64,000 bases of DNA from a virus: positions 32,185 through 96,184 of IMG/VR virus record IMGVR_UViG_3300042396_000723; one strand, written 5' to 3'. Shown here one piece after another: positions 12,196-64,000 of this stretch. The position numbers were made by a program, and so were the translations under genes. Within the stretch, counting starts at the first letter, position 1. Each line of letters opens with the position of its first letter. Below the pieces are notes generated by a model. The model did no database searches, was not told where the DNA came from, and saw only the letters and a program-made list of their open reading frames with translations.

Positions 12196-12405
12196 CTAGC
12201 GAGTGCGATCGCGCCCCGCTTGTTGACCATCTTCATAACACCCTTGATCAAGGTGTGCTATTACTTCATCCCCTTTCAGGAGCCACCATTTCCGGTGATA
12301 AGGGACAGAACCCGTAGCGGTTCCCCAGAGTTCAACGCCTTCGGGCATCGCGTAATAATCTTTGTCGTAATTTGAAGCCACCCGTCTAATTTCTGATGCG
12401 TTCAT
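12196..12405 (-). CDS. hypothetical small protein
   Basis: 69 aa ORF. Confidence 0.3.
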   Translation of the reverse strand: MNASEIRRVASNYDKDYYAMPEGVELWGTATGSVPYHRKWWLLKGDEVIAHLDQGCYEDGQQAGRDRTR

Positions 12406-12484
12406 AATTCTCTTATTTATGCTGGGTTTTGAATTGGGGGAATTTCACCCCCGGAGTTAATCAGTCAAGAACCAAGGCAATTAT

Positions 12485-44589: not shown

Positions 44590-45555
44590 ATGTATAAAAA
44601 GATGACACCAACAGAAACTTCAGTAAAATTAGCGATTGCACAAGTCTTGTCAATGCCTTCTGTTTTTAACGCACCTCTTTACGTCTTGGATTTTAACATT
44701 GACGAAAAAGGGACGGTATCAGGAAGGTTTAGAGATGCTGCTAGACCCCGTGTATTTAGCTATGAGATTGCAGACGATGGAATAACCTTTAGTCCCTTTG
44801 TCCCTGGAAGAATGGATAGCAGTGACTGGAAAGTAGAAGACTGGGAGAAGTTTTCAGATGGCTATTCGTTTAGGATTGACGCAGGGATGCAAAAACGAAC
44901 CGACAAGCCAAAATGTAATCCGGCTGTTTCTTTTTCTTGTGGAAAGGCTTGTGTTAGTTTAAAAAAGAAATGCAAAACAGATCCTCAAGATCCGACTTCT
45001 GTAGCCAAGAAAGAAAAATTAAAAGCTGTTATTAAAGAGGTTACAGTTACCGACAAGACGAGCAAAATTAAAGTCAGTAAGGATAAATCTAGTAAGCCCA
45101 AAGCCAATAAATTGATCAATGACCTAGAACCCTTAGAGCCATTAAACACCTCTCGGACACCCACTGAAACCGTGTTACCTGAGCTAAGTTCTAACAATGT
45201 TGTTAAGGGTCTTGGTGGTAAAGTGGGCAGAGGAAAATATTCAGGCGATGCGGGTAGGGATTTTGAAGATACTGGCAAGATGATGAACTACCCACTAAAA
45301 AGCGTTGTAGCCACAAAGGACATGAAAGGGAAGGAAAAAGAAGTGGCAGACGTAGCAAAAATGTTGAAAGAATCCGAGAGAAATTGGCTCCCTGTTTATG
45401 TCAAAGAAGTTAGACCTTACGAGTATGAAGTTGTCGGAAATCATTTGACCCATGCAGCAGCAATAAAAGCAGGGTTTGAGAGGATTTGGACTATTCCGGT
45501 TGATTCAGATCCGGCTACTCTCAAACAGATTCAAATGTTAACAAACGGTAATTAA
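44590..45555 (+). CDS. modular family member A: conserved N-domain, 4-Cys linker, ParB/Srx-like C-terminus (tentative)
   Basis: N-domain (KLAIAQVLSMP...GRFRDAARPRVFSYEI...GYSFRIDA) and KPKCNPAVSFSCGKACVSLKKKCKTDPQD shared with the paralogs; C-terminus LPVYVKEV...YEVVGNHLTHAAAIKAGFERIWTIPV resembles ParB-like domains. Confidence 0.5.
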   Translation: MYKKMTPTETSVKLAIAQVLSMPSVFNAPLYVLDFNIDEKGTVSGRFRDAARPRVFSYEIADDGITFSPFVPGRMDSSDWKVEDWEKFSDGYSFRIDAGMQKRTDKPKCNPAVSFSCGKACVSLKKKCKTDPQDPTSVAKKEKLKAVIKEVTVTDKTSKIKVSKDKSSKPKANKLINDLEPLEPLNTSRTPTETVLPELSSNNVVKGLGGKVGRGKYSGDAGRDFEDTGKMMNYPLKSVVATKDMKGKEKEVADVAKMLKESERNWLPVYVKEVRPYEYEVVGNHLTHAAAIKAGFERIWTIPVDSDPATLKQIQMLTNGN

Positions 45556-45997: not shown

Positions 45998-48900
45998 ATG
46001 GTCACAACCTTAAACCGTCAAAATCCCCGTCGCCTTGATGCTGCTCCTACGGAAGTGCAGATGAAACTTGGTATTTCTCAAGTTTTGTCGATGCCATTTG
46101 CCTACAACTCTCCGGTTATCGTTCTGGATTTTGAAGTAGGCAATAAAAACATCATCAAGGGACGGTTTAAGGATGCCATTAGATCCCGTGTTTTTGAGTT
46201 TGAGATTGGGGATTCTATCACGTTCAAGCCGTTCACCTGGAGGCGAACGGATAGCGACGTTGACCCGATGGCATGGGAAGACTTCTCTAAAGGGTATTGC
46301 TACCGATTCGATGCAGTCAAGACCGTCAGAAAGGAAAAACCTAAGTGTGGCAATACTTCTTATAACTGCGGTAAAGCCTGCATTGGCTTAAACAAGAATT
46401 GCAAATCAGATCCCCCCGATAAACCGTCCCAGGAGAAAGTTGATAAACTCAGAGCCGCGGCAGGGGAGTTTAAAGCTGTTCAGGGCGATCCAACCAAGAA
46501 GCAAGAGGATAATAAGTTAACGCCAAAACCACAGGAAGTTAAGGAAGTCGCGCCCACCCCCTCTCCCGATAAAGCAGAAGTCCCTGTCACCGACCTTGCT
46601 AAACAGCCACCTGTTGCCTTAAAAATTGGTAAAAAATCAGTCAACCTAAAAGACGACCTTGATTCCTACAAAGATTTAAGAATAACCGCCGATCCCGTTT
46701 TAGGTTGGCAAGTTATCAATAAGAATGGGAACGTACTGAGAGAACCGCCCAAGGGCAACACGGCTCCAAGTCATAGATTCAAGAAAAGAGAGCAGGCTGA
46801 AAAGTTTGCTAACGATGTGATGACACGGGTTGAGAAGTTGCAGAAGGCTCAACCAAAACCGGATGCTGATGTAAGTGACTCTGATAAAAGGTCATTTGAA
46901 AGTCTTTACACCACAAAATTATCATCCGCCCAACAGTTGCTTAACTTAGAAAAAAACGCAAAAATAGCGCGAATATCTCCCAGTGAAGATCAAAAAAATT
47001 ATGACAAAAAACAACCCGACCTCAATATTGATTCGGGGCCAGGAATAATGGAAGGTTGGAGGACTGCGAAACCAGACGGATCTGTCCAGGGAATCCCTTG
47101 GTCTGTCAAGGCGGAGGGTCAAGAAAAGTCACGGGCTATCGTGGGTGCTAGATTAACGGATCATCCAGCCAGCCCTAATTTAAAAAGACTCAGGTTATAC
47201 GACGCAGACGGACGTAATGAGACAATTGACTTCAAAAAGGGTGATAGAAACGCATCTCTTAGGGCTAGAAGACTTGTTAGAGAAATCGCACAAGGAAAGT
47301 CTCAAGAGATGGAATCTGGCGACATAAAAGCGTTGATTGAGGGAGGTAAAGAGGGTTTAGCTAAAAGAAAAGTGGAAAAGGCAAGATTAGCTGCTGAAGA
47401 CAAGCAATTTAAAGCAGCCTTAGATGATTATTTAAAATCAAAAAACCTAACAAGAGAAAGCATTAAAGGTTTGACCGATATCGGAATGGACGATCTTATC
47501 GAAAAAGTTGAGAAATACCAGAAATCACGATCTCAAACCCCCAATTCAGCAGGGGATAAGGGTGCGGGGGGTAAAACGTTTGACCTAAATGATTTATGGC
47601 GACAAACCGCCGACGCTGCTTATTCTAAAAACAAAGATGGTGTCTCAAAAAATCTTGAGCAATGGAAGGAAGTTGTAAAAAAATTAGAGTCAGGAGAAGG
47701 GATCTCTAAAGACGTTAACTTAAACGAATACGAAAAGTTAATGGATAATTTAGAAAAAAAATTAGTCCTCGATCCCAAAGATCCGTCTAATGTTGAATTT
47801 AAAAAGATTACGGGATCTATTTCTAAGATTCTTAGTAAAGCAGGCAGTCTCAACCCGTTAACACAAGAAGACCTAGAAAAAGCTCACCCTAACTTTAGAC
47901 CAATCATGCAACGAATTAATAAAACCGTTGCTAAGGATTATGAATTATTTGACAAAAAAGAGCGAGTTCAAAAAGAGTTAAATAGCCTAAAACAAGAAAA
48001 ATCTTATAACGAGGCTGTGATATTAAATAATTCAAAACGATTCCGAGAAATAGGTATTAATAATAACGAGGTAGAAATTCAAAGACTTTCCAAGAAAAAA
48101 CCGAGCGATTCAGTTGAGGTTAGAAATCCTGTCTCAAATTTACCAGAAAGGACTATTTCGGCATCCAAACGGATTAAGGAACTTCAAGATGAAATTGGGG
48201 AATTGAATAATAGTGAAAAAGCTAAAATAGAAGAAGACAGGGCTAGAAAAGAAATAGCCCGATTGCAAAGCCCAATGAAGGATGCAGAGAGTAGAATAAA
48301 CGCCATTTTAGACGAGAAGAAAAAATTAAGGGAATCTCGCGGCGGATCTAGTTCACAATCAGAACCCAAGCAAACCCCAAATTCAGTAGGGGTTGATGGT
48401 GCGGGGGGTAAATCAGTTGATCAACAATATAAGGATATAATTGCTAAGTCGAAAGATCCAAAGGGAACAGAGGAAGTTTTATCGTCAGCATTAAGAGGTG
48501 GGTTTGGTGACTTTGAAAGAAAAAATTATAACGAATATTCAACCGCTATAAAATCTGGGACTGTTCCAAAAGGAATGGGGAACTATTATCAAAAACAAGT
48601 CGACAAATATAAACCCATTATTGAGGCGGAAGATTTTATTAACGAAAGGAAGAAAAAAGCAATTAGTGGAGACTATGAAACAGAACAAGAAGCTGGGGTT
48701 TATGTTCTTAATAAATTAAAGCAAAAAGGCTACAAAGAACACGAATATTATGACAGTCCAGACTATGAAAAAGATTATGGAAAATTGGTGGGGGTAATGA
48801 AATCTGTTAAACTTCCTCCGCCGTTGTCTGGTATCGTCCCCGGTAAAGAATTAAAACAGACATTAACTCCGGGTGACAAACTACTTGTTAAAGAGGATAC

Positions 48901-49282
48901 TTATTCGTTAATGAGTAGTGGAAATACCCCTACTGGCTATCGAATAGTTGATGGTGGCGAAGTTTTAAAGGTTAATGTCAAGAATGTTAAAACCCGCGTT
49001 AGAGGCGAATACATGGGGAAACCCTACGAGAACGAGCCGTCTCTCGCTCTTGATAAAGTTACCCACGTCATCCGAGATGGTAAACGTTACAAGGTAGATG
49101 ATTCTGATAGATCCCCCAATGACTTAAAGTCGGAATCCTCCAAATCCCAGAAAGCAGTAAAACAAAAGGCAGTAAAACAGAAAGCAATAAAAGTTCAAGG
49201 GGAGCGATCGCAAAAACAAGAATCCCCTCTAATTCCGAAAGAGGAAATAGTTAAAGATGCTCCAATACTGATGTTAAGGTAA
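45998..49282 (+). CDS. modular family member B: N-domain, 4-Cys linker, long Lys/Glu-rich helical C-terminal region
   Basis: 1094 aa; N-domain and KPKCGNTSYNCGKACIGLNKNCKSDPPD shared with paralogs; C-terminal region has internal repeats (SAGDKGAGGKTFD / SVGVDGAGGKSVD; QKAVKQKAVKQKAIK). Confidence 0.5.
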   Translation: MVTTLNRQNPRRLDAAPTEVQMKLGISQVLSMPFAYNSPVIVLDFEVGNKNIIKGRFKDAIRSRVFEFEIGDSITFKPFTWRRTDSDVDPMAWEDFSKGYCYRFDAVKTVRKEKPKCGNTSYNCGKACIGLNKNCKSDPPDKPSQEKVDKLRAAAGEFKAVQGDPTKKQEDNKLTPKPQEVKEVAPTPSPDKAEVPVTDLAKQPPVALKIGKKSVNLKDDLDSYKDLRITADPVLGWQVINKNGNVLREPPKGNTAPSHRFKKREQAEKFANDVMTRVEKLQKAQPKPDADVSDSDKRSFESLYTTKLSSAQQLLNLEKNAKIARISPSEDQKNYDKKQPDLNIDSGPGIMEGWRTAKPDGSVQGIPWSVKAEGQEKSRAIVGARLTDHPASPNLKRLRLYDADGRNETIDFKKGDRNASLRARRLVREIAQGKSQEMESGDIKALIEGGKEGLAKRKVEKARLAAEDKQFKAALDDYLKSKNLTRESIKGLTDIGMDDLIEKVEKYQKSRSQTPNSAGDKGAGGKTFDLNDLWRQTADAAYSKNKDGVSKNLEQWKEVVKKLESGEGISKDVNLNEYEKLMDNLEKKLVLDPKDPSNVEFKKITGSISKILSKAGSLNPLTQEDLEKAHPNFRPIMQRINKTVAKDYELFDKKERVQKELNSLKQEKSYNEAVILNNSKRFREIGINNNEVEIQRLSKKKPSDSVEVRNPVSNLPERTISASKRIKELQDEIGELNNSEKAKIEEDRARKEIARLQSPMKDAESRINAILDEKKKLRESRGGSSSQSEPKQTPNSVGVDGAGGKSVDQQYKDIIAKSKDPKGTEEVLSSALRGGFGDFERKNYNEYSTAIKSGTVPKGMGNYYQKQVDKYKPIIEAEDFINERKKKAISGDYETEQEAGVYVLNKLKQKGYKEHEYYDSPDYEKDYGKLVGVMKSVKLPPPLSGIVPGKELKQTLTPGDKLLVKEDTYSLMSSGNTPTGYRIVDGGEVLKVNVKNVKTRVRGEYMGKPYENEPSLALDKVTHVIRDGKRYKVDDSDRSPNDLKSESSKSQKAVKQKAVKQKAIKVQGERSQKQESPLIPKEEIVKDAPILMLR

Positions 49283-49457: not shown

Positions 49458-50186
49458 ATGACTAATTTATCATTATTACCTGACGATATTCGTTCTGAAT
49501 TTTCCGTTAACGATCAAGGTCAGGCTTTTGCGAGTAGACGGGCGATCGCACGGTTGGCAGGCGTTTCTCATGTGTCCATCGGGAATCTATTGGATAAAAT
49601 CGCTGTTAACCTAGACCTCCCCGAAAGCATTGAAATCCTTGGAGGGCAGGACTTTGAGGGTGTTAACCTGATCCCTGATACCGTTGCCTCCCGGATTATT
49701 GAGTATTACGCTTTTGATGCTAAACGTTATTGCACAGAACAAGCCAAGCGAGTTTATAAAGCATTCGGGGCTATCGGGTTTCGGTCGTGGGTACAAACTG
49801 AATTAGGTTGGCAATATTCACAACCTAAGTTACCTCAGACTTATGCTGAGGCATTACTGGAGGCGGGACGGTTAGCGTTAGAAGTGGAGAAGTTGGAAGC
49901 CGAGAAAACATTGCTTGAGCAAGAGAATGGCGAACTCTCCAAAAATTTAGATGAGTTATTTGATTATTCCTCTATTGTTCGGATTGCCAAGTTTAACCAA
50001 ATCTCAGAGAAAATCTTTAACTGGCGGTTACTCAAGGCATTGAGTCTTAAAATGGGGTTAGAAATTAAAAAAGTCCCGTGTCCCAGGTTTGAGACAAAAA
50101 GCCTATATTCTCACGATGTCTGGCGTGTTGCTTATCCTGAAATGAAGCTACCAGAAACGACAACGCTAGTTATTAACAGAGGATAA
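49458..50186 (+). CDS. antirepressor-like protein, paralogous in its C-domain to the Rha-family gene at 26576-27265
   Basis: C-terminus PQTYAEALLEAGRLALEVEKLEAEK...YSHDVWRVAYPEMKLPETTTL is near-identical in pattern to 26576-27265; the N-terminal domain is different. Confidence 0.5.
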   Translation: MTNLSLLPDDIRSEFSVNDQGQAFASRRAIARLAGVSHVSIGNLLDKIAVNLDLPESIEILGGQDFEGVNLIPDTVASRIIEYYAFDAKRYCTEQAKRVYKAFGAIGFRSWVQTELGWQYSQPKLPQTYAEALLEAGRLALEVEKLEAEKTLLEQENGELSKNLDELFDYSSIVRIAKFNQISEKIFNWRLLKALSLKMGLEIKKVPCPRFETKSLYSHDVWRVAYPEMKLPETTTLVINRG

Positions 50187-51160: not shown

Positions 51161-52675
51161 ATGGTTGAAATCAGGCTTGATGCTCCAGCTAAATTTAGGG
51201 TAATCAGAACTGATGATGGTCGCCTCCATTGTGAGGGGTCTTTTTGTCGTGATGGGGTGTTGGAATATCGTCAGCCTGATGGCTCCATAGTCCACGAACT
51301 CAGGAGACCGGAAACCAATGCAGAACTAGCCACAGTGGAGAGTTTTAAGCTCCTCCCCCTGGTAATTGAACATCCCCATGTTGGGCTTCTTAATAGCGAA
51401 AGTTATAAGGATTACGCAGTCGGGATGACTGATTCTTCTGCTTATTACAACAAGGCTGAAGGGGTGATCGAAGGCTTGGTGTCGTTTTTTGATGCTAAAG
51501 CGATCGCCCTAATTGATTCAAGGGAAAAGGAACAGTTGTCTGCGGGATATACCTGCGATATCAAACAAGGGGCAGGGGTATGGAATGGTCAACACTACGA
51601 CAGAGAACAGATTAATGTTCGTGCTAACCATTTGGCTTTAACGAGCCGAGGAAGGGCAGGAGAAGATGCCCGTCTCCGATTAGATAGTGCTGCGGGGATT
51701 GGGCAAGCTGTTGCAGGGCAAGCTGTTGAAAACCCTAGTAACCCCAACAAAACCAAAGATAATGGAGATAATGAACAGCGCATGGCAATAATTAGATGCG
51801 ATGGAGTCGAATATTCAGGAATCCCTGAAGTTTTCGCTTCTATTAGTGGTACTCGATTCCGTGAATTAAAAGAATTAAAGGAACGCCACGATTCGCTTGT
51901 TACACGGTTTGACGCTACGATTCGGGAGAATCGGAAGCTAGAAGCCGCACAAGAGAACTACCAGTTTCGGTTGGATAACCTGGAAATCATTGTGGACAAT
52001 GCTGACAATGTCCTTGGTGAATTAGGTTATTACCGGAACGACATGGGGCAATACGTCCGTGTTGATGGGGGCAAAAAGAAAATGATGTCTCTTGTTCCCG
52101 AAGATGAAGAAATGATGGAAGATGAGGACAATGAAGATGAAGAAATGATGGAAGATGAGGTTATGGAAGAAAAAGAAACCATGACTTCCAGAAAGAAAAA
52201 AAAGTCCAAACCTCGTGCTGATGGCGACGATGAAGGCGAGAGTGATTACCGGGGTGATTCAATCGGGGATCTGTTGGCGATTTGGAAGGAAGCCGACAGT
52301 TTGTTACCAGGGTTCTCTGACACTCGGTTTGATAGTGGCTTCTCCACTAGCGATATCAAGCGCACTTTGTTGGCTGAAATCGAACCCAATATGGATTTGA
52401 CGTTCCGATCCGATTCTTATGTAGACGGGGTTTTTGCCTACATTCAGGAGAATTATGATTCCTCCCCCACCGATCCAGGTGACGAAGAAGAAGGGGATGA
52501 CGAGGAGGAAGACGATGGAGACTCGGAGGAGTTTTCCCATCGCCTTGATTCGGTACTCAAAAGACCTGCTCAATCTACCTACGGAGATGAACTCACCGAA
52601 TGGGAAAGACGACGGGTAGATGCCTATAAGCAGCCTTTAACGATAGGAAAAACACGCACGGGGTTTACTAGATAA
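51161..52675 (+). CDS. capsid scaffolding / head maturation protein candidate
   Basis: 504 aa; acidic low-complexity C-terminal half (MMEDEDNEDEEMMEDEVMEE, DEEEGDDEEEDDGD) typical of scaffolding proteins; lies immediately upstream of capsid-like genes. Confidence 0.4.
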   Translation: MVEIRLDAPAKFRVIRTDDGRLHCEGSFCRDGVLEYRQPDGSIVHELRRPETNAELATVESFKLLPLVIEHPHVGLLNSESYKDYAVGMTDSSAYYNKAEGVIEGLVSFFDAKAIALIDSREKEQLSAGYTCDIKQGAGVWNGQHYDREQINVRANHLALTSRGRAGEDARLRLDSAAGIGQAVAGQAVENPSNPNKTKDNGDNEQRMAIIRCDGVEYSGIPEVFASISGTRFRELKELKERHDSLVTRFDATIRENRKLEAAQENYQFRLDNLEIIVDNADNVLGELGYYRNDMGQYVRVDGGKKKMMSLVPEDEEMMEDEDNEDEEMMEDEVMEEKETMTSRKKKKSKPRADGDDEGESDYRGDSIGDLLAIWKEADSLLPGFSDTRFDSGFSTSDIKRTLLAEIEPNMDLTFRSDSYVDGVFAYIQENYDSSPTDPGDEEEGDDEEEDDGDSEEFSHRLDSVLKRPAQSTYGDELTEWERRRVDAYKQPLTIGKTRTGFTR

Positions 52676-53505
52676 TGCGGTACAATTACAATCTTCAATT
52701 TGATCGGGCGACTCCTGGCATGGGCGAGGGATCTATTAATTTTCCGAGGGTCAAAGCCCTTGTTTCTGTCAAGAATGCTGTTAAAGAGGTCTGGACTCTG
52801 GCGGTTCCTGCCTCCCCCACTTCTAGCACTACATATACCGTCAAATTAAACAACGGACTAGGTACGGCACGTTTTACAACCGACGCTAGTGCCACTCAAG
52901 CGGAACTGCAAGCTGGTTTATTGAATGCAATCCGAATAAACCCTGCTTTTGGGCGACGAGGGATTGCTGCTGTTAGTGGGAATAATGTGTTGTTTACAGC
53001 ACTGGAATATGGTATCGAAAATATCCTAACAGTTACTGGTGCTAGTTTAACAGCAACTAAAACTACGGCGATGACCATACCTCTTCCTGTCCCCTTCGGT
53101 CGGTTTGTCGCCAGAGCAAACACTGAAACCGATCCCAAAGTTGCAGGGCTTCCTACTGCTATTACTGACGTAATCCTGGGCATTACTCGAATCGTCAAAG
53201 ATATCGAAATGCAGCCTTTGATAAATCAAGGTGCAAGCTATGGTGGAACGACTTACCCATATCAAGATGTGATGGACGTGGTTGACCGGACAGGAGAATC
53301 GTCAGGGATCTGGGTTGAATGTGTCGAGACGGATATCACAATTAATGATGCCGTCTATGTCTCTATTGCTGCGGGACACGAGGGGAAAGCAACAAAGGTG
53401 ACAAGTGGCACGATTAATATCTCCACGAAGGCTGAGTTCAAGTGTTCCCCCGTAGTCACTAGCACTGGTGCGGTGTGCGTTTTGATCGGCTTCAATGTTC
53501 CCTAA
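52675..53505 (+). CDS. head structural protein candidate
   Basis: 276 aa, Thr/Ala/Gly-rich; start overlaps the scaffold-like gene stop. Confidence 0.35.
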   Translation: MRYNYNLQFDRATPGMGEGSINFPRVKALVSVKNAVKEVWTLAVPASPTSSTTYTVKLNNGLGTARFTTDASATQAELQAGLLNAIRINPAFGRRGIAAVSGNNVLFTALEYGIENILTVTGASLTATKTTAMTIPLPVPFGRFVARANTETDPKVAGLPTAITDVILGITRIVKDIEMQPLINQGASYGGTTYPYQDVMDVVDRTGESSGIWVECVETDITINDAVYVSIAAGHEGKATKVTSGTINISTKAEFKCSPVVTSTGAVCVLIGFNVP

Positions 53506-53530: not shown

Positions 53531-54484
53531 ATGATGAACTTTTCTGGGACTACAAGGTTAGATGCTGATGAAATCGGCACGTTCTTTGGCTCTCTGATGG
53601 ATTTAGAGGCTCAGATAGATAAGGAATTTGACCTTGCGGACTATCCTTTCGCTGCTGGAGTCATTTGCCCTCTGAATATCCAAAACAAGCCCTGGGCAAA
53701 AACCTGGGGGTATCGGTGGCTCCGCCACGTTGGGCAGTTCAAGTTAATCCGAAACTACACCACAGACCTTCCCGAAGTGGAACTGGTCTATGGCGAGATG
53801 AAGATGCCGATTCATAAATGGGGACAAGGCTATAGCGTCTCTGAGGATGATATCGCGGCTGTTAGTCGGATGGGCGAGAGTATTGAAGAAGACAAAATCT
53901 GGACAATTCAAGAAGCCGCACAACAAAAAATCAATCAGTTGGTGGCAAACGGGGATTTAGAAACAGGAATGCCCGGTTTCTTGAATCATCCCCAAGCACT
54001 GCGGTCTTATGCTCCCTTCCCTTTGAACGGGTCAGCAACATCACAGCAAAAACTGAGTGTATTGAATGATTGTGTTAATGCTCCGACTCGGCTGACCAAT
54101 AACCGAGAGAAGCCGGACACATTGTTGATGGATTCGGAAACTTACGAACACCTCTCCTCGGATATTATTCAAATCGGCACATCCGCATTGGATCGTACGG
54201 TGTTAGAGCATTTCTTAAAAGTCAACCCTAATATCAAAGAAGTCGGCGTTGTGTCCGAGATGGCTCCTGACTATTTAGAGTCGATTGGTTTAGCTCCCAC
54301 CCGCTTTATTCAGGCTTTCCGTCGAGATCCCAAAAAAGTCTCTGCTAAGATTTATCAACCGTTAAAGTGGACTGATACTCGCCCCATTGGTGTTGATTCT
54401 TTCTGGCGTGGTGCCAAGTTTAAGTTTGGGGGAATTGATCTCAAACGCCCATTCTCCATGCACGTTGTAGTATTACCTGAATAA
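53531..54484 (+). CDS. major capsid protein candidate
   Basis: 317 aa ORF downstream of the scaffold-like gene, with a strong RBS context; assignment by position and size. Confidence 0.4.
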   Translation: MMNFSGTTRLDADEIGTFFGSLMDLEAQIDKEFDLADYPFAAGVICPLNIQNKPWAKTWGYRWLRHVGQFKLIRNYTTDLPEVELVYGEMKMPIHKWGQGYSVSEDDIAAVSRMGESIEEDKIWTIQEAAQQKINQLVANGDLETGMPGFLNHPQALRSYAPFPLNGSATSQQKLSVLNDCVNAPTRLTNNREKPDTLLMDSETYEHLSSDIIQIGTSALDRTVLEHFLKVNPNIKEVGVVSEMAPDYLESIGLAPTRFIQAFRRDPKKVSAKIYQPLKWTDTRPIGVDSFWRGAKFKFGGIDLKRPFSMHVVVLPE

Positions 54485-55487: not shown

Positions 55488-55903
55488 GTCAATCTTTCGT
55501 TGAGCAAATGATAGCCCTAAGAGACCGAATCTCTCCCCTTGCGGGGGGATTTGGCAATCCCAACATTCAAAACCTCGTCGTTCGCACAAGAGTGGGCGAT
55601 GGGTACGAATATTTGGAGATTTCCCCAACTCCGGTTATCCAAAAACAATTCCCAAACAAGGAGGGGATTGAAAACCTAAGCTCAGTGGAGGGGATAACTA
55701 GATCCTATTCAGTTAAAGGGATTTCACGGCGTTATTTAGAGGTGCAATTGAAAGGGGAGGGGGTTGACTATCTAGTCGGAGCCGATACTACTTATTACCC
55801 TCCTGATGGCGTTGTTTGTAACTTAGTCTCACTAACAGAAAATGTTGTGACGTGGGACATGGAGTTAGTTGAGAAGATTAGCTCACAAGGTTTTTATTTG
55901 TGA
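55484..55903 (+). CDS. hypothetical protein
   Basis: 139 aa ORF; start overlaps the previous stop. Confidence 0.35.
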   Translation: MSQSFVEQMIALRDRISPLAGGFGNPNIQNLVVRTRVGDGYEYLEISPTPVIQKQFPNKEGIENLSSVEGITRSYSVKGISRRYLEVQLKGEGVDYLVGADTTYYPPDGVVCNLVSLTENVVTWDMELVEKISSQGFYL

Positions 55904-55940
55904 TTAACTCACAAGGTTTCTATTTATAAAAGGTAAAATC

Positions 55941-57365
55941 ATGCTGAAATCAAAACCAAGTTCTTTGTATCGGGTTGATGAAGATGAAGTAGCAATGGGA
56001 AGTGGTGGGAGAGGAACTGCACCAACCGAAGCCCAAATGAAGCTATTTATTGCCCAAACTTTGTCAATGAACTTCGCCTATAACGCCCCAGTTGTTGTGC
56101 TTAAATTTGATGTTGCCGAGAATGGGAATATTGCCGGATTATTTAAAGATGCGGCACGTCCACGGATGTTTTCCTTTACCTTAGACGGGGAGTCCGTAAC
56201 TTATAAGCCTTACAAACCTGGTAAAATGGACAGCTTGGAATCAGACGAGGATGTCCAAGAATGGGAGGCATTTTCAGAGGGGTACGGGTTCCGCGTAGAT
56301 GCGGGGGTAGGGGGCAAAAAAAAGCCTCAATGCGTTAAGCCCACCGCTTACAATTGTGGGAGTGCCTGTATTAATGTGATGAAGGACTGTAAGACTAACG
56401 CCAAAGATGCAGTTTCTAAGGATAGGCTTAAAAAGTTGAAAGGTGTGGCGATGTCTTATTACAAGGAATTTGAGAAACTTGATAAGACAGAAAGAGGCAG
56501 TGACAAACAGAAGGGATTTGGCGACAAATCAAATCAAGCTAGTCGGAAAAGAGTTGAATTGATGGAGCAATCCAAAAGCAAAAAGGGGGTAAAGTCGGAC
56601 GAACCCCAGATCAAGCCCAAGGCAGAAAGTAAAAAGCCTTCTACTCAAAAATTATCAACACAGAAAACGGTAGAACCCGAAGTTAAAACCAAGCCAAACG
56701 TAGAACCTAAAAAGACGGAATCCAAGCCAAAGTCCAAAGCCAATCCCTTTTATAGTGACGAACCAATTAAGGATTATGAGACTTTTAAAAAGGAAATACC
56801 AAAAGAACTGGCTAGGTTTAATTTTGAATACAATATGGACGGGTTGATCCCTATTCCAAGAATGAGAGAGGAATTAAAAGGGAGAGTAAAAGCAGAGGAC
56901 TTTGATAAGTGGATGCTACAGTCTCAAGCCGATAATGATAATATTCGACTTAGTGAAGGGCAAAAGAAAATGCCAGGGGGGATAAAAACCGAACTAGGAA
57001 ACCACAGGGATAACATTCGATTTTTTGACAAAGAGGCTATGGAAAAAGCTAGGACTGAAACGAAAAGAAAACCCGGTCAAATAATAGATCCAAAAGAATT
57101 TGAAGACGTGGCAATGAAGTCCTTAACCGATCTTGATAAGGACGGGAAATATGGCAATCTCATCCCTATTCATGAACTCAGAAAAACCCTTGGCGACAAA
57201 GTAAGTCGAGGGGATTTCAATAATTTATTGATGGAAATGCAGGCAAATGACAAGGTTCAATTAATTGGGGGTCAAATGACAGATGCCACCCCAAAAAAAG
57301 TGGAGGACTCTGTTGTATCAGAGCTGGGGGCATATCGTTATTACGTTAAAATCCTCAAGGATTAA
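55941..57365 (+). CDS. modular family member C: N-domain, 4-Cys linker, duplicated C-terminal domain
   Basis: 474 aa; KPQCVKPTAYNCGSACINVMKDCKTNAKD; the C-terminus carries two related ~45-aa units (GLIPIPRMREELKGRVKAEDFDKWMLQSQADNDNIRL / GNLIPIHELRKTLGDKVSRGDFNNLLMEMQANDKVQL). Confidence 0.5.
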   Translation: MLKSKPSSLYRVDEDEVAMGSGGRGTAPTEAQMKLFIAQTLSMNFAYNAPVVVLKFDVAENGNIAGLFKDAARPRMFSFTLDGESVTYKPYKPGKMDSLESDEDVQEWEAFSEGYGFRVDAGVGGKKKPQCVKPTAYNCGSACINVMKDCKTNAKDAVSKDRLKKLKGVAMSYYKEFEKLDKTERGSDKQKGFGDKSNQASRKRVELMEQSKSKKGVKSDEPQIKPKAESKKPSTQKLSTQKTVEPEVKTKPNVEPKKTESKPKSKANPFYSDEPIKDYETFKKEIPKELARFNFEYNMDGLIPIPRMREELKGRVKAEDFDKWMLQSQADNDNIRLSEGQKKMPGGIKTELGNHRDNIRFFDKEAMEKARTETKRKPGQIIDPKEFEDVAMKSLTDLDKDGKYGNLIPIHELRKTLGDKVSRGDFNNLLMEMQANDKVQLIGGQMTDATPKKVEDSVVSELGAYRYYVKILKD

Positions 57366-57466
57366 ACAAGATCAAATAGCTACAAGCCGAAAGTGTTAAA
57401 AGAAATAGCAGTAGGAACATATAGAAATCCTTAATTAAGTTACAGGCAAAAGGAATATCAAAAAAC

Positions 57467-59332
57467 ATGATCATAGAGACTAAATCAGCCCCAACAAAAG
57501 CTCAAATGCAAGCAGCGATCGCCCAGACTCTTGCTCTTCCTTTTGCCTATAACTCCCCAGTGGATGTGATGGACTTTAAGGTAGATGGCACGGGTAAAAT
57601 ATCAGGGCGATTCAAGGATTCTGCCCGTCCAAGGGTGTTTGATTTTGAGTTAGATGGAAATACCGTCAACTTCAAACCTTACACGACAGGACGTATGGAT
57701 TCGGACGATGCAGTGGAACAATGGGAGGAGTTCTCGTCAGGGTATTCCTATCGTTTTGATGCTAAGGCAAAAGCCAAGGCGAAAAGCAAGACAGGAGACT
57801 CCAAGAAACCCCAATGCGTTAAACCCACAGCATATAATTGCGGAAAAGCCTGTATAAATATTAATAATAATTGTAAATCCAACCCCGACGATGCTAACTC
57901 AAAGGATCGTTTAGAAAAACTGAAAGCTGCTGGTATTGATTACGCTAAAGAAACTAAGAAATCCACTCCTAAATCTACCGCAAAAACCAAGAAAGAGGTA
58001 GAAAAACCACCGGAAATAGATAAAACCCCTAAAATAGATAAAACCCCTGAAAAGATAGAGGGAAAGGCTACCGAGTCCAAATCCCTTAATTTAGTAGGAA
58101 AAGGGGATCACGAGTCCGTCCCCAAAGATGCGAATGAATACTATGAAGCAATGAAAACATCGGGCAATCCTATCTCTTATGACGATGCCATAAAGATTAC
58201 CGGAGCCGTTAGAGAGTGGACGGAGGATGCTTCTTATATTAGGGAATCTCAAAAAGCAGGGAAATACAGCATTATTGCCGACCGGATTAATGATTACGTT
58301 AAAAGTTCAACGCCATTCAAGGGCGAAATTTATCGAGGCATCTCCTTCGGATCAACAGATGAGGCTTTGAGTTGGGCTAAGGGAGATAGTGATGGGATAT
58401 TAGATAATCAGAATGCCCATGCTTCTTGGACTTCTAACTGGGATAAAGCCAGAAAGTTTGCTGGTAACAATTCGGTAAACGACTTTACATCGCAACCTGT
58501 CATTATCAAAACAAATAATAAGTCGGGTGCCTCCATCAAAAACCTAAGCAACATTGGCACAGAAGATGAGGTAGTGGTTGTCAAAGACACTCGCCATCGG
58601 GTTAAGAATGTTGTATACGAAGATGGTGTTTTGATCGTTGAGACAGAAGAAGTTTCTCCAGATGAGGGAAAGAAAGCGCCTGAACCATCACCAGAAATAA
58701 CTAAACCCCAAAAAGAATCCGAGGAAAAGGCAGTTAAACAACCCGAAAATAAACCCAAAAACCTTAATTTAGTGGGCAAAGGCGATCATGAATCCATGCC
58801 ATCAAGCCACAAAGAGTATTATAAAGCACTGAAAAAAGCAGGGGTCAATATTTCTGAGAAGGAGGCAGCAGCCACCACTACAGCCATCTATAAATGGACG
58901 AGGAATGCTAACGACATCCGAGCCGATCAAAAGGCAGGAGAGGAGAACGAAGATGCAAATCGAATCTCTAATTATGTCAGGAACTCAACCCCATACAAAG
59001 GCGAAGTTTACCGAGGGATTCACTTTGAAACCAAAGAGGAGGCTTTAAACTGGACTAAAGGCGACAAGGATGGAGTGCTAGATAATCAAGGTGCTCACGC
59101 CTCTTGGTCATCTAGCCTTAAAACAGCAGAAGAATTTTCAGACGATTTCTTTATTGAGGAAAAAAGATATCCTGTTGTCATTAAATCAATCAACAAATCA
59201 GGTGCTTCTATTAAGAATTTAAGCAACATCAAAGAAGAAGACGAGGTTATGGTTTTAAAGGATACTCGCCATCGGGTTAAAAGTGTCAGGGAAGAAAACG
59301 GACGGATTATTGTTGAAGCTGAGGAAGTATAG
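57467..59332 (+). CDS. modular family member D: N-domain, 4-Cys linker, two tandem ADP-ribosyltransferase-like domains
   Basis: 621 aa; each duplicated C-terminal unit has INDYV / ISNYV, YRG (KGEIYRGISF / KGEVYRGIHF), an STS-like HASWTS / HASWSS, and ExE followed by hydrophobics (TEDEVVVV / EEDEVMVL), matching the R-S-E ART motif order. Confidence 0.55.
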   Translation: MIIETKSAPTKAQMQAAIAQTLALPFAYNSPVDVMDFKVDGTGKISGRFKDSARPRVFDFELDGNTVNFKPYTTGRMDSDDAVEQWEEFSSGYSYRFDAKAKAKAKSKTGDSKKPQCVKPTAYNCGKACININNNCKSNPDDANSKDRLEKLKAAGIDYAKETKKSTPKSTAKTKKEVEKPPEIDKTPKIDKTPEKIEGKATESKSLNLVGKGDHESVPKDANEYYEAMKTSGNPISYDDAIKITGAVREWTEDASYIRESQKAGKYSIIADRINDYVKSSTPFKGEIYRGISFGSTDEALSWAKGDSDGILDNQNAHASWTSNWDKARKFAGNNSVNDFTSQPVIIKTNNKSGASIKNLSNIGTEDEVVVVKDTRHRVKNVVYEDGVLIVETEEVSPDEGKKAPEPSPEITKPQKESEEKAVKQPENKPKNLNLVGKGDHESMPSSHKEYYKALKKAGVNISEKEAAATTTAIYKWTRNANDIRADQKAGEENEDANRISNYVRNSTPYKGEVYRGIHFETKEEALNWTKGDKDGVLDNQGAHASWSSSLKTAEEFSDDFFIEEKRYPVVIKSINKSGASIKNLSNIKEEDEVMVLKDTRHRVKSVREENGRIIVEAEEV

Positions 59333-59343
59333 GAGATTTAACT

Positions 59344-59436
59344 ATGAGTTTAACGACTAGAAAAGATGCCATGCTAACGGAATCTCAGATGAAGTTGGCG
59401 ATCGCCCAGACTCTTGCCCTTCCTTTTATGTTCTGA
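59344..59436 (+). pseudogene. truncated N-domain remnant upstream of family member E
   Basis: Reads MSLTTRKDAMLTESQMKLAIAQTLALPFMF then stop; identical in pattern to the opening of members D and G but ends after ~30 codons, indicating a deletion of the rest of the N-domain. Confidence 0.4.
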
Positions 59437-59437
59437 A

Positions 59438-60532
59438 ATGAAAAAACCCCAATGCGTAAAGCCAACATCATATAACTGCGGAGCGGCTTGTATCAACGTT
59501 TCCAAATCTTGCCAACAAGTCCCTTCTGAATCTTTTGGGCGATCGCGTCTTCAGAAGTTAAAACAAATTGCTTCTATTTATGCGAAGCAAAACACAGCAA
59601 AATCTCAAAGACAAGGGGCTACGGCTAACAAGATCATAGGATCAATTGAAGAAAAAAGGAAAACTGAAGCGACATCTTTGGCACAAGACAGAAAAGTTAT
59701 TAACCAAGACCGTAGAAAAGCTAGGTTAAAAGCCGAAGCAAAAGCCAAGAGAGAGCAACTATTAAAGATGTATGAAGATGTTAGTAAAACGTCAACATCA
59801 AAAGGCAATGTCCCCAAACTTTTGAATACAGAAGCTCCTGACAGGGAGCTAACAAGGTTAAAAAATAAGTACGAAAAGCAATCGGTTGAAACGGCAAAGA
59901 CCAACCTACAAAAAGCCGAGAGAGCGCTAAGTAGTGCGCTTAAAACTATAGGGGAGATGAAACAGGAGTCTGATAAATTCCTAGAAGAAACCCGAAAACT
60001 GGTACAGGTAGACAAACCTACTAAATTAAACTCATCGGTCAAAACCGGAACCCCTAACGCCCATAAAAAAGGTGTTGAGGCGTTCCAAAAAATGATCTCA
60101 ATTCCAGGCTTGGACACTCCAGTTAGTATTGTGGAAACCCCTCCAGAAAGGAAGGGGAGAAGTTGCTACAAACCCAAGACAAATAATGTATTCATGGGTA
60201 ATTCCGACCCTGCCGTTGTAGTTCATGAGATGAGTCACTGGCTAGAGGAGAAAGTACCAGGAATCAGAGAGGAAGTTCAGGAGTTTTATAATAAGAGAAC
60301 CCAAGGCGAGAAAAATATTAAACTAAGTGAAGTTACTGGCAATAAAAACTATGGGGATAGAGAGGTTACAAAGGTTGATAAATGGTTAAATCCTTACATG
60401 GGCAAGGAATACAAAAACGCCTCTGAAATCCTTTCTATGGGAATGGAAATAATGTACCGCAACCCTGCTTATTTAGCCAAGAATGACCCCGAAATGTTCG
60501 ACTTTATTTATAGTGTTGTGAGGAGAGGATGA
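59438..60532 (+). CDS. modular family member E: 4-Cys linker plus HExxH domain, N-domain deleted
   Basis: Starts at ATG 59438 (MKKPQCVKPTSYNCGAACINVSKSC...); C-terminal VVVHEMSHWLE ... SMGMEIMYRNPAYLAKNDPEMFDFIYSVVRRG shared with F and G. Confidence 0.5.
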   Translation: MKKPQCVKPTSYNCGAACINVSKSCQQVPSESFGRSRLQKLKQIASIYAKQNTAKSQRQGATANKIIGSIEEKRKTEATSLAQDRKVINQDRRKARLKAEAKAKREQLLKMYEDVSKTSTSKGNVPKLLNTEAPDRELTRLKNKYEKQSVETAKTNLQKAERALSSALKTIGEMKQESDKFLEETRKLVQVDKPTKLNSSVKTGTPNAHKKGVEAFQKMISIPGLDTPVSIVETPPERKGRSCYKPKTNNVFMGNSDPAVVVHEMSHWLEEKVPGIREEVQEFYNKRTQGEKNIKLSEVTGNKNYGDREVTKVDKWLNPYMGKEYKNASEILSMGMEIMYRNPAYLAKNDPEMFDFIYSVVRRG

Positions 60533-61668
60533 TTAAATACAGAGAAGACAAGAGGGAAAAGAAAGCTCAATGCGTGAAGACTACTTCCTATAATTGCGGT
60601 CTATCTTGCATTAATGTTAAGAAAAATTGCAGGATAGTCCCGAATGATTCAAGGTCAAAGGATAGGCTTGAAAAGCTGAAAACAATGGGGATTGATTACG
60701 CTAAAATTAGACCCTCAAAGTCTAAAGTTAAGCCGACACCAACCCCTATTCCGGTCATTCCCGCGCCAGTGATACCCGCGCCAGTCGTAATGCCAGAACC
60801 CGAAGTTAAAGAGACTCCAGAGCAAAGGAAAGCGAGGTTACAAATAGAATCAAGAGTTGTTCGGCAACGACTCGTGGGGATGTATGATGATCTTGAGCAT
60901 GAAGAGAAAAGAAATCCAATCAAAGCCAATCAAAATGCCATAATAGCAATTAACGAAGAAAACCCCAAAAAGTTTTTAACTAGCAGGATAAAATTCTCTA
61001 ATTCAAGAGCGAAGGATTATATTAAAACAAATCCAGAAAAAGCTCAGACATATGTGGATGCTGCCAAAATCGACCTAGAACCTGCACTAGCTAAAGTTAA
61101 CGATCTTTTGGGTGAAGCCAGAAAATTAGTTGAAGTAAAGAATCCGTCATCATTTAATATAAAACAAAAAGGGGATAATATAATCCTTTACAAACACTTG
61201 TTAGATAAAGGAATTGACGCTTTTCAGAGGTTGGTCGATGTACCAAAATTGAGAAGTCCTGTCTCCATCGTAGTAACAGAACCATTGGGAAGCAGAAGCT
61301 CTTATTCTGACGCTGCAAAGAAAATCACACTAGGAACTGATGACCCGTCTGCCATTGTCCATGAGTTAGCGCATTGGTTGGATTTGTCTGACAATGGGGT
61401 CAAAAAAGAAGTTTTAGAATTTTACAATAAAAGAACGGAGGGAGAAAAAACGGTAAAGTTAAGTGATGTTAGCAAAAACCCATATAGTAATGATGAAGTA
61501 ACTAAAGTTGATAAGTGGTTAAATCTTTATATGGGAAAAGTTTATCCTGACAAGTCAACGGAAATCCTCTCAATGGGTTTAGAATTAATGTATAAGAACC
61601 CAGTATATCTAGCAAAAAAAGACCCCGAAATGTTTGACTTTATTTACTCAGTAGTTAGGAGAGGTTAG
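60529..61668 (+). CDS. modular family member F: 4-Cys linker plus HExxH domain, no N-domain
   Basis: 379 aa; AQCVKTTSYNCGLSCINVKKNCRIVPND; Pro-rich PVIPAPVIPAPVV tract; C-terminal IVHELAHWLD ... SMGLELMYKNPVYLAKKDPEMFDFIYSVVRRG; its ATG overlaps the E stop. Confidence 0.5.
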   Translation: MIKYREDKREKKAQCVKTTSYNCGLSCINVKKNCRIVPNDSRSKDRLEKLKTMGIDYAKIRPSKSKVKPTPTPIPVIPAPVIPAPVVMPEPEVKETPEQRKARLQIESRVVRQRLVGMYDDLEHEEKRNPIKANQNAIIAINEENPKKFLTSRIKFSNSRAKDYIKTNPEKAQTYVDAAKIDLEPALAKVNDLLGEARKLVEVKNPSSFNIKQKGDNIILYKHLLDKGIDAFQRLVDVPKLRSPVSIVVTEPLGSRSSYSDAAKKITLGTDDPSAIVHELAHWLDLSDNGVKKEVLEFYNKRTEGEKTVKLSDVSKNPYSNDEVTKVDKWLNLYMGKVYPDKSTEILSMGLELMYKNPVYLAKKDPEMFDFIYSVVRRG

Positions 61669-61669
61669 C

Positions 61670-61945
61670 ATGGCTTATCGCGTTAAAATCAATGGTGTAG
61701 TGGCAATTGTTGAAAATGGCGTTTGGTCATCCTCAACACCCCATTATGCCGAAATTCTAAATAACGTCTTGGCAATGGAGAAATTGGCAGCCATAGACCC
61801 TGATTCGCCTTTTTTCTGGCTTAATTCCCCTGCAACACCCGACCCAGATTGGTTAATTGCCACCGAAATAGCCAAAACCTTTGAGGGGACGGTGATGGAT
61901 CAACCGATTACTCCTCTGACAACAGACGAAGATATTATTTATTAA
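61670..61945 (+). CDS. hypothetical small protein following an HExxH-domain gene
   Basis: 91 aa ORF starting 2 nt after the F stop; possible accessory or immunity-type partner (speculative). Confidence 0.3.
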   Translation: MAYRVKINGVVAIVENGVWSSSTPHYAEILNNVLAMEKLAAIDPDSPFFWLNSPATPDPDWLIATEIAKTFEGTVMDQPITPLTTDEDIIY

Positions 61946-61949
61946 TGCG

Positions 61950-63401
61950 ATGAAGTTCAATCCAAATGCTACGGTTTCCGAGACTCAAATGAAGTTAGCG
62001 ATCGCTCAAACGTTATCGCTCCCATTTGCCTATAATTCGCCCGTGATGGTGTTGGATTTTGATTTAGGGGATAAGGATAGTAACAAGATAACAGGGCGAT
62101 TCAAAGACTTATCCCGTCCCCGCGTGTTCAGTTTTGAGATAACCAAGAAGTCAGTTGTCTATAAACCCTTCGTGGCTCGAACTGATAGCACGGAATTGGA
62201 TGCTAAATCGTGGGAAGATTTCTCGAAAGGTTACTCTTATCGAGTTGATAGTCAAGGCTTGAGAAAGGAAAAAGCTCAATGTGTCAAGCCGACTTCTTAT
62301 AACTGTGGGAGTATTTGTATTAATATTAAGAAAAACTGTAAGGCTAATGCTGATGATGACTTTTCGGAAGAACGGATTGACAAGCTATTTAAGTTAAGAA
62401 GATATTATACAGACAAATTATTGGAAATAAATCCAAGTACACAAAGAGAAGAAGAGACTCTCCTTGAAGAAAAAGTCCGAGAAGTCTCTCGACTACTTAA
62501 ACCATACAATGATCGTCAAAAAGAGCTAGAGAAACAAAAACAGGAGCAAATCAAAGAACAAAGAAGCCGTCAAATAGAAGTATTGAAGTCCGAAGCTCAA
62601 TCGAAAAGAACGCAATTAATGGCATTGTCAAATGAATTAGATAGCAATCAAAAAATATCTTCTGATGCAAGAATTAAGGCATCAGTTCACCTTGAATTCG
62701 ATGATCCAGAAAGCGGAATAAAAAGGGATCTTAAATTTGCTGAAAGTGTTGCTCTAAAACTGAATAAAAATGGACAAAAAGAAGCCGAGATATTCTCCCA
62801 AAATGAGTTAAAAATTGCCATAGAAGCAAAAAAAGAAATTGATAATATTTTAGACAAAGCTCGTGAGTTGATAAAGGTTGAGAAACCAGTTGATATTGGT
62901 GTAGCGTTTGATTCTAAGAATGTAAGAAAACCAGATGAATATAAGAAAGGGCTTGAGATGTTTTCTGAAATGATTTCGGTTCCCAATTTAAAAGAAACAT
63001 TAGAAGTTAAAGAGACAGATTCGGGAAGAAGTTATTACAAACAGGGAGCTATACACATGGCAAATCCAGATCCGGCGACAATCATCCACGAATCAGGGCA
63101 TTGGCTAGAGGCTCGGAATATTCAGGTAAGGAGAGAAGTTAAAGAATTTTATAATAAAAGGACAGAAGGAGAGCCTATTGTCAAATTGAGCGAATCAACG
63201 GGTGATCTCTATGAAGACTATGAAGTTACCAAGGTCGATAAATGGCTTCATCATTACATAGGGAAGTTTTATGGAAACCAGCCTAGTTCCGAGGTTCTGT
63301 CAATGGGATTAGAGATGATGTATAAAAACCCCATTTACTTAGCCAAAAACGATCCCGAAATGTTTGATTTTATCTATTCTGTAGTTAGGCAAGGGAATTG
63401 A
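61950..63401 (+). CDS. modular family member G: N-domain, 4-Cys linker, coiled-coil, HExxH domain
   Basis: 483 aa; KLAIAQTLSLPFAYNSPVMVLDF...GRFKDLSRPRVFSFEI; AQCVKPTSYNCGSICINIKKNCKANADD; C-terminal IIHESGHWLE ... SMGLEMMYKNPIYLAKNDPEMFDFIYSVVRQG. Confidence 0.5.
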   Translation: MKFNPNATVSETQMKLAIAQTLSLPFAYNSPVMVLDFDLGDKDSNKITGRFKDLSRPRVFSFEITKKSVVYKPFVARTDSTELDAKSWEDFSKGYSYRVDSQGLRKEKAQCVKPTSYNCGSICINIKKNCKANADDDFSEERIDKLFKLRRYYTDKLLEINPSTQREEETLLEEKVREVSRLLKPYNDRQKELEKQKQEQIKEQRSRQIEVLKSEAQSKRTQLMALSNELDSNQKISSDARIKASVHLEFDDPESGIKRDLKFAESVALKLNKNGQKEAEIFSQNELKIAIEAKKEIDNILDKARELIKVEKPVDIGVAFDSKNVRKPDEYKKGLEMFSEMISVPNLKETLEVKETDSGRSYYKQGAIHMANPDPATIIHESGHWLEARNIQVRREVKEFYNKRTEGEPIVKLSESTGDLYEDYEVTKVDKWLHHYIGKFYGNQPSSEVLSMGLEMMYKNPIYLAKNDPEMFDFIYSVVRQGN

Positions 63402-63474
63402 AGTTAATGGGTCAATCAAAGCAACAAAGCAAACGCTAAAATGTCTTCCTTGGAGAAAATATAGGAGGGTGGGA

Positions 63475-64000
63475 ATGCTAATAGATAAATCAACTGAAGA
63501 AGACTATCTCAATGGTCGTACTTTTGCTCAGGGTTATTTTTTGCGGATTGACGCAGCTAGAGCCGACGCAGCTAGAGCCACCCCAAAATGCAAGAATGGG
63601 GTTTCTTATAGCTGTGGGAAGTCCTGTATTAGCCTTAAGAAAAATTGCAAGTCAGAACCGCAAGATGAAAAAGGGAAACAAATTCTTAAGGCAGTAAAAT
63701 CCAAGGCTTCTGAGTTTGCTAAAACAAAAGCAAAAACACCCAAAGCTACTCCAGTTAAGCCTACTGAAATTAAGCCAGATGTAGAAGCTCCTCCCCCTCC
63801 CCAAGGTGATATAAAGGTTAAGGCATCTAAATCAAAAACCAAGGTATCAAAACCCGTCGCAGTGGAAGCAGAGAAAAAAGCGACTCCTGCCAAAACCAAA
63901 AAAGCAAAACCCTCAACAAAGCTTAGTGAAGTTAGCAAAGAGCAGAAGAAAGTGGAGGCGATCGCAAAACCATCCAAAACAATAGGAGATGGAACTCATG
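63475..64000 (+). CDS. modular family member H (partial, runs off window): truncated N-domain, 4-Cys linker, Lys-rich region
   Basis: ATG at 63475 preceded by AGGAGG; FAQGYFLRIDAARADAARATPKCKNGVSYSCGKSCISLKKNCKSEPQD; contains a 15-bp tandem duplication (GACGCAGCTAGAGCC x2); no stop before the window end. Confidence 0.45.
   Translation, partial: MLIDKSTEEDYLNGRTFAQGYFLRIDAARADAARATPKCKNGVSYSCGKSCISLKKNCKSEPQDEKGKQILKAVKSKASEFAKTKAKTPKATPVKPTEIKPDVEAPPPPQGDIKVKASKSKTKVSKPVAVEAEKKATPAKTKKAKPSTKLSEVSKEQKKVEAIAKPSKTIGDGTH

Follow-up and report, generated by a model that had tools for sequence, protein, structure and literature searches.

The stretch of DNA studied here, referred to throughout as the window, comprises 64,000 nucleotides (nt) and corresponds to positions 32,185 to 96,184 of the IMG/VR virus record IMGVR_UViG_3300042396_000723. 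Towards its 3' end it encodes three neighbouring proteins, E, F and G, each of which ends in a copy of the same module bearing an HExxH motif, and a short open reading frame (ORF), the partner gene, is located between F and G. The genes and motifs of the locus are given below, with lengths in amino acids (aa) and with the orthologues found in the Planktothrix phage PaV-LD.

59438..60532, + strand: gene E, 364 aa from its ATG, with a four-Cys motif, a helical linker and a C-terminal zincin module; orthologue of PaV-LD ORF080R, 97.5% identical.
59453..59512, + strand: four-Cys motif of E, CVKPTSYNCGAACINVSKSC.
60002..60529, + strand: zincin module of E, with HExxH at 60224-60238 (VVVHEMSHWLE) and Y-M-G-K-x-Y at 60395-60412.
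60425-60427 and 60446-60448: predicted third-ligand Glu and Glu of S-M-G-M-E, respectively, in the E module.
60529..61668, + strand: gene F, 379 aa; orthologue of PaV-LD ORF081R, 98.2% identical.
60571-60630, + strand: equivalent four-Cys motif of F.
61129..61665, + strand: zincin module of F, the copy used for the structure model, with HExxH at 61360-61374 (IVHELAHWLD).
61561-61563 and 61582-61584: predicted third-ligand Glu and Glu of S-M-G-L-E, respectively, in the F module.
61670..61945, + strand: small partner gene, 91 aa, ending in DIIY; PaV-LD ORF082R; starts 1 nt past the F stop.
61950..63401, + strand: gene G, 483 aa, with an adaptor (aa 11-73), the four-Cys motif (aa 111-130), long helices (aa 137-307) and the zincin module.
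62280-62339, + strand: equivalent four-Cys motif of G.
62871..63398, + strand: zincin module of G, with HExxH at 63087-63101 (IIHESGHWLE).
63291-63293 and 63312-63314: predicted third-ligand Glu and Glu of S-M-G-L-E, respectively, in the G module.

The start of E is most likely the ATG at 59438, which is also the start of PaV-LD ORF080R, rather than the TTG at 59414, and the start of F overlaps the stop of E in an ATGA junction. The module copies of the three proteins share 55-57% identity across 149-174 aligned residues, while their upstream parts share merely 29-34%. A hidden Markov model (HMM) of the family, searched against the six-frame translation of the window, found exactly three copies (E = 1e-59 to 1e-64). 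Taken together, the module identity and these matches show that the likeness is due to homology and not to chance, which bears out an initial annotation of this DNA in which the three proteins were proposed to end in a common HExxH module. That annotation had correctly recognised the motif in all three copies, with positions off by 1-2 nt, but the module is longer than the 150 aa or so that it suggested, being about 175 aa (range 165-180). The motif S-M-G-[ML]-E begins at 60434 in E, 61570 in F and 63300 in G, and the common tail DPEMFDFIYSVVR at 60485, 61621 and 63351, respectively.

Structure prediction and conservation of the motif had been named in advance as the two checks on a zincin assignment. 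For the F module, AlphaFold2 gave a very confident model from 57 homologues (predicted local distance difference test, pLDDT, 95.3; predicted template modelling score, pTM, 0.90). This model has a zincin fold, with a mixed beta-sheet, an N-terminal helix, an active-site helix and a following helix. The HExxH motif lies on helix 73-87 (module numbering). Foldseek used on its own was too insensitive for the fold comparison of this module. The two His and the Glu of the motif are invariant both in the 57 homologues and in a set of 86 aligned sequences, each representing a cluster at 50% identity; all conservation counts given here are based on this alignment. The complete set of residues invariant in 86/86 comprises H78, E79, H82, R102, D128, Y134, G136, E145, G150, D165 and F169; in the numbering of protein F, H78, E79, H82, Y134 and E145 correspond to H278, E279, H282, Y334 and E345.

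The gluzincin-type layout put forward in the initial annotation is supported by the fold of the model and by these invariant catalytic residues, but the Glu which it had selected, that of S-M-G-[ML]-E, varies. This residue, E152, is Glu in 73 representatives, Gln in 12 and Asp in one. Seven residues before it, in the motif [ST]-E-[IV]-L-S-M-G, E145 is Glu in all 86, and in the model it stands at the N-terminus of helix 146-156, after the active-site helices. Judged by conservation, E145 (E345 of F), which is invariant, is most likely the third zinc ligand, and E152 most likely a second-shell residue. Upstream of E345, the tyrosines of Y-M-G-K-x-Y (Y334 and Y339 of F) are invariant or near-invariant. 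An HExxH motif with an additional Tyr and Glu is the active-site layout of lethal factor, of the Pro-Pro endopeptidases (PPEPs) and of MtfA, and the Y-M-G-K-x-Y tyrosines fit it. On the strength of the sequence conservation and the model, all three modules are probably active as intact zinc endopeptidases of the gluzincin type.

The closest folds in the model comparison are those of the peptidase families M34 (anthrax lethal factor and the PPEPs) and M90 (MtfA). Sequence searches of Pfam, NCBIfam and the PDB with the module returned nothing significant, the best Pfam signal being Peptidase_M90 at E = 0.06, and comparison of a single sequence and two profiles with the PDB gave coiled-coil noise or nothing. 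The M34 members in MEROPS (lethal factor, PPEP-1, PPEP-2 and PPEP-3) have the HExxH, Glu and Tyr layout in their active sites. They differ from the module in sequence, with 10-18% identity and no PDB sequence match to lethal factor or a PPEP, and in setting, being secreted bacterial toxins or adhesin-releasing proteases rather than phage head-associated domains. The Pfam family ATLF has no match in E, F, G or the 57 and 86 homologues, so that the likeness to M34 is structural only. Peptidase_M90 (PF06167) is the only Pfam family with a repeatable signal for the module, which is below threshold: E and F score 13.3 and 13.4 bits against a gathering score of 26.2 bits, and G gives none. MtfA itself differs in being a cytoplasmic bacterial peptidase that binds a regulator, without a phage or virion link.

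The module belongs to a large family that has no name in Pfam or NCBIfam. When 1.84 billion cluster representatives (at 50% identity, the level of all family counts) were searched exhaustively with a profile, 6,280 of them matched at E <= 1e-3, of which 3,920 reached E <= 1e-10; earlier searches had given 6 matches by word-indexed protein search and 96 by profile search. Among the 86 representatives, the module co-occurs with Phage_Mu_F in 30, with a portal domain in five, with ART-PolyVal in two and with Phage_min_cap2 in one, while MPTase-PolyVal (1e-4) and Peptidase_M90 (E = 4.6e-4) match one homologue each. In the Flavobacterium phage pippi8-1 and the Bacillus phage vB_BboS-125 the module forms the end of a MuF or 'head morphogenesis' protein encoded beside the portal gene, and that of the Xanthomonas phage Rb1 has an internal head protein on one side and an SNF2 ATPase on the other. 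Prophages of S. pyogenes also hold it, and its structural matches in BFVD bear the label 'phage head morphogenesis domain'. Some relatives are giant proteins (1,877-4,676 aa) with two to four matched stretches, one of these proteins having ADP-ribosyltransferase (ART) domains and another a MuF domain. At 75 IMG/VR loci the module mostly stops 0-8 residues before the protein C-terminus. Across this large phage family the module is usually the last domain of head-associated proteins, of the MuF/SPP1-gp7 or portal kind.

The genomic setting of E, F and G agrees with this picture. Bases 55900-63500 of the window match PaV-LD with 95% identity across 76% of that length, and judged by this similarity the phage is a close relative of PaV-LD, a PaV-LD-like Planktothrix cyanophage. 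The following head genes were assigned in the window.

41814-43802, + strand: portal of the Phage_portal_3 type, with a C-terminal fusion to an InPase domain (PF18823).
51161-52675: DUF2213 head protease (Pfam scan).
52675-53505: minor capsid protein of the XM1-gp53 type.
53531-54484: major capsid protein.

Since the surrounding ORFs are phage head genes, and since in PaV-LD the virion-structural block runs on into the tape-measure gene, E, F and G sit inside a virion-structural module and not in a cyanobacterial housekeeping context. The product names given by the depositors of PaV-LD are 'virion structural protein' for ORF081R, the orthologue of F, and 'minor virion protein' for ORF085R, the orthologue of a further paralogue, H; these names would speak for packaging. 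The InPase domain is one of the domains of polyvalent proteins, and the portal of this phage therefore itself bears an enzyme.

E, F and G are members of a set of eight paralogues, A to H, which have in common a leader in which an adaptor of about 75 aa is followed by a disordered stretch and then by a four-Cys motif that is invariant. The consensus of the motif, K-P-Q/K-C-x6-7-Y/F-N/S-C-G-x2-C-x6-C, is present in all eight; E and F keep the motif alone, without the adaptor half of the leader. In a model of full-length G (pLDDT 83) the adaptor is formed by a helix and four strands and the Cys motif by three short strands, and the remainder consists of about 170 residues of long helices followed by the zincin module. 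The other paralogues are as follows.

44590..45555, + strand: paralogue A, 321 aa; leader, four-Cys motif and a C-terminal domain without assignment.
45998..49282, + strand: paralogue B, 1094 aa; leader, four-Cys motif and a long body without assignment.
55941..57365, + strand: paralogue C, 474 aa; leader, four-Cys motif and an internally repeated C-terminal region.
57467..59332, + strand: paralogue D, 621 aa; leader, four-Cys motif and two tandem ART-like repeats.
63469..64000, + strand, cut by the window end: paralogue H; end of the leader and four-Cys motif, with a PaV-LD orthologue (ORF085R) whose end is ART-like.

Of the two repeats of paralogue D, the second is matched by Pfam ART (E = 1.2e-5) and the first can be seen in the alignment. 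PaV-LD is the only isolated phage in which the leader was found. At 44 IMG/VR loci it is followed by B-like bodies, ART, C-like and A-like regions, the zincin, a GNAT domain (Acetyltransf_10, E = 3.2e-5) and others without assignment, so that a single leader bears at least six cargo types. We considered whether the leader might be a diverged MuF domain, and this was rejected on an hhalign probability of 0.14% against a MuF alignment. Two further observations concern the cargo. By eye, the C-terminus of paralogue A (45190-45552, + strand) and the cargo of IMG/VR locus L131 (motif V-N-G-H-N-R-L) look ParB/Srx-like, and Pfam gives them no significant match. The repeated region of paralogue C (56800-57365, + strand) includes two similar segments of about 55 aa (...IPI..[ML]R..L...V...DF...L...QA.D...L..GQ), and a 349-aa leader-bearing protein present at six IMG/VR loci is likewise internally duplicated; neither region has an assignment.

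The partner gene also recurs with the module. At 63 of the 75 IMG/VR module loci, the stop of the module gene is closely followed by an ORF no longer than 110 aa, mostly overlapping the gene or within a few nt of it, and 51 of these 63 small ORFs (43 unique sequences) are homologous to the 91-aa ORF of the window. The partner proteins are about 75-100 aa long. A C-terminal Tyr, mostly after Val or Ile, is present in 30 of the 43 unique sequences, and [VI]-[VI]-Tyr is the usual ending (about 70%). No relative of the family is present in Pfam, PHROGs, NCBIfam or the PDB, and it is called 'hypothetical' wherever a source names it. Look-ups starting from the partner hit contigs already in the IMG/VR set and add no independent evidence. 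In the window, a search with the family HMM found the partner once, behind F, with no copy following E or G. The order E-F-partner-G is repeated in a Lake Mendota contig, and the same arrangement was observed on the 49-kb contig JBIPLY010000606.1, which is labelled as a metagenome-assembled genome of Acetobacteraceae and is probably a mis-binned PaV-LD-like phage contig. The small downstream ORFs of S. pyogenes phage 315.3 (ending in AIY) and of pippi8-1 (ending in EIY) were tried as partners and rejected, the partner HMM being blind to both. The partner may be a cognate inhibitor, an immunity protein or a chaperone of the module, possibly acting via its C-terminal tail.

The third copy of the module resides in a part of the locus that is exchanged between related phages.

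62226..63430, + strand: swappable cassette, the body of G from after the adaptor, including the Cys motif, to just past the stop.

On either side of this cassette, window positions 61600-62225 and 63431-63998 match PaV-LD with 92-93% identity, but at 12336-12985 PaV-LD has 0.65 kb instead of the 1.2-kb cassette, consisting of the end of ORF083R and an unrelated ORF084R. PaV-LD consequently has two zincin modules and the window phage three. In IMGVR_UViG_3300042346_001065, a near-identical environmental phage, the F module is 99% identical and the G slot holds the same leader with a GNAT domain. The module paralogues of E, F and G have diverged by 43-45%, whereas the orthologues of E and F in PaV-LD are 97-98% identical. 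Because the paralogues are so far apart while the orthologues are so close, and because the G slot is exchanged, the triplication is old and diversified, with turnover at the G slot. Of the two functions proposed initially for the triplication, dosage is not supported by these values, and diversification is favoured by the two versus three copies and by the GNAT domain in the third slot. These comparisons suggest that cargo can be exchanged through recombination at the leader.

Two known systems of phage head-associated effectors resemble E, F and G. In phage polyvalent proteins no domain is commoner than the zincin-like metallopeptidases (MPTases), which have been tied to lethal factor by HHpred (Iyer et al. 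2017, PMC5512222). Like them, the module has an HExxH helix and a downstream Glu helix in a lethal-factor-related fold, and an acidic residue three past HExxH (HExxHxxE/D; Glu in 84 and Asp in two of the 86). In virion-gene contexts it also keeps company with ART, ParB, InPase, MuF and portal domains, and some giant proteins hold several copies. The differences are that the Pfam model MPTase-PolyVal (PF18818) has no match to E, F or G (E <= 10) and matches only one of the 86 homologues, at 1e-4, and that the module has an Arg (R56) before the active-site helix where the widespread phage-type variant of Iyer et al. has His. Moreover, polyvalent proteins in the sense of Iyer et al. (2017) combine two to fifteen unrelated effector domains, whereas E, F and G carry one cargo domain each, although they share the virion-gene context. 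In virions of phi24B, proteomics has detected a polyvalent protein that is packaged and bears a metallopeptidase domain (bioRxiv 10.64898/2026.04.10.717836).

The second system is that of the MuF toxins, about 20% of which have a metallopeptidase and whose small downstream ORFs have been taken as immunity genes (Jamet et al. 2017, PMC5576092). The E/F/G system has the same constant N-terminal carrier, variable C-terminal enzyme and small ORF directly downstream, and 30 of the 86 module homologues have PF04233. It differs in its leader, which has no similarity to MuF, and in its phage: PaV-LD has been described as a lytic cyanophage, while the MuF toxins come from temperate phages of human-associated bacteria. 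Neither the supplementary files of the CL131 paper nor those of Jamet et al. mention these ORFs or metallopeptidases. The family is an unnamed addition to a known class, namely zincin effector domains on phage head proteins of the polyvalent and MuF types. By analogy, a common N-terminal leader on unrelated enzymes encoded among head genes also recalls T4 Alt and the internal proteins of T4 and the Dar proteins of P1, including ADP-ribosyltransferases like T4 Alt (PMC5512222); the likeness is by analogy alone, and packaging and leader cleavage in the window phage are hypothetical.

The best explanation for these observations as a whole, which the sequences and the models make reasonably probable, is that E, F and G are gluzincin modules loaded into the capsid on a private leader, injected into the host and restrained by the partner. 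E, F and G would be made late, as virion-module proteins. In the active site (F numbering), H278, H282 and E345 would bind zinc, and E279 would serve as the general base. Loading of the module into the capsid, and its release into the host along with the DNA, are what we infer from the usual place of the family at the end of head-associated proteins. Early in infection the module would then attack either a protein of the host or phage proteins packaged along with it. The carrier in the PaV-LD lineage would not be MuF but the private leader of adaptor and four-Cys motif, with a cargo of three zincins, two ART-like proteins and others, and the partner would keep the protease harmless until delivery. 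Three points weigh against this explanation. A partner after F only is awkward if each copy needs its own inhibitor; E and F, which are without the adaptor, might escape packaging if the adaptor is the packaging signal; and a Pfam scan of E, F and G found no MuF domain (PF04233 or PF06152). A wider proposal, possible but rather doubtful, is that the module and its partner of about 80 aa form a widespread head-carried protease-inhibitor pair of tailed phages. In such a pair the tail of the partner would plug the active site until ejection, and the freed protease would cut a host target at the start of infection. The PaV-LD lineage would have moved the system onto a leader loading at least six kinds of enzyme as cassettes.

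The main rival to delivery of a restrained protease into the host is a role in processing, in which the zincin would cut phage proteins, for instance by removing the leader and four-Cys motif from the eight paralogues, or would trim cargo in the capsid or after ejection. The zincin modules are encoded amid the leader-paralogue family, whose strongly conserved leader could hold a common cleavage site, and Iyer et al. have argued for autoproteolytic processing by the MPTases of polyvalent proteins, citing DdrB of P1 (PMC5512222). The phage, however, has a dedicated head-maturation protease in the DUF2213 protein at 51161-52675, the module is usually the sole extra domain on MuF proteins, which leaves little to process, and one conserved site does not need three diverged copies. 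We regard processing as unlikely. The remaining alternatives are less likely still. A zincin fold put to non-proteolytic use, as a YbeY-like nuclease or as a head protein whose part is purely structural or that of a scaffold, is improbable given that the HExxH, Glu and Tyr set is invariant in 86 diverged representatives, unlike that of degenerate domains of the lethal-factor-N type, and that the best matches are active peptidases.

It is conceivable, but quite improbable, that the ejected enzyme cuts the peptide stems of peptidoglycan or a protein of the envelope to let the DNA pass across the thick Planktothrix wall. M34 and M90, the closest folds, are endopeptidases that act on proteins, and neither is a fold known from peptidoglycan peptidases. 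Neither a cell-wall-binding domain nor a transmembrane segment is visible in E, F and G (Pfam scan and G model). The authors of the phi24B virion study did speculate that the metallopeptidase domain of the packaged polyvalent protein degrades peptidoglycan (bioRxiv 10.64898/2026.04.10.717836), but an endopeptidase and a holin of PaV-LD that were studied for lysis are other genes, ORF123 and ORF124 (PMC9096620). We consider very improbable a host-derived regulatory protease of the MtfA type, that is an auxiliary gene product expressed in the infected cell and left unpackaged. The weak Peptidase_M90 signals that would speak for it (E = 0.06 for E and F, 4.6e-4 for one homologue) are far under the Pfam cut-off, and the homologues are overwhelmingly head-protein fusions in phage structural modules, not genes in bacterial regulatory contexts.

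If these are injected proteases, they would act as effectors in the first minute of infection across many phage lineages, including phages of a toxic bloom-forming cyanobacterium. At least 6,000 clusters (50% identity) of 'hypothetical' phage head-associated proteins, for which Pfam and NCBIfam have no model, acquire through the module a name and an active site that can be tested. The partner and the exchangeable leader-cargo cassettes offer a simple genetic handle, in the form of a protease with or without its partner and of swappable cargo, and the leader could possibly be used as a tag to load foreign proteins into cyanophage capsids.

A PADLOC scan for defence and anti-defence families gave no match apart from a coiled-coil artefact. 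Within the structural block, between paralogue B and a Neck1/tail-completion gene, an Ant-like anti-repressor ORF was observed at 49458-50186 (+ strand; phrog_63, E = 7.6e-7).

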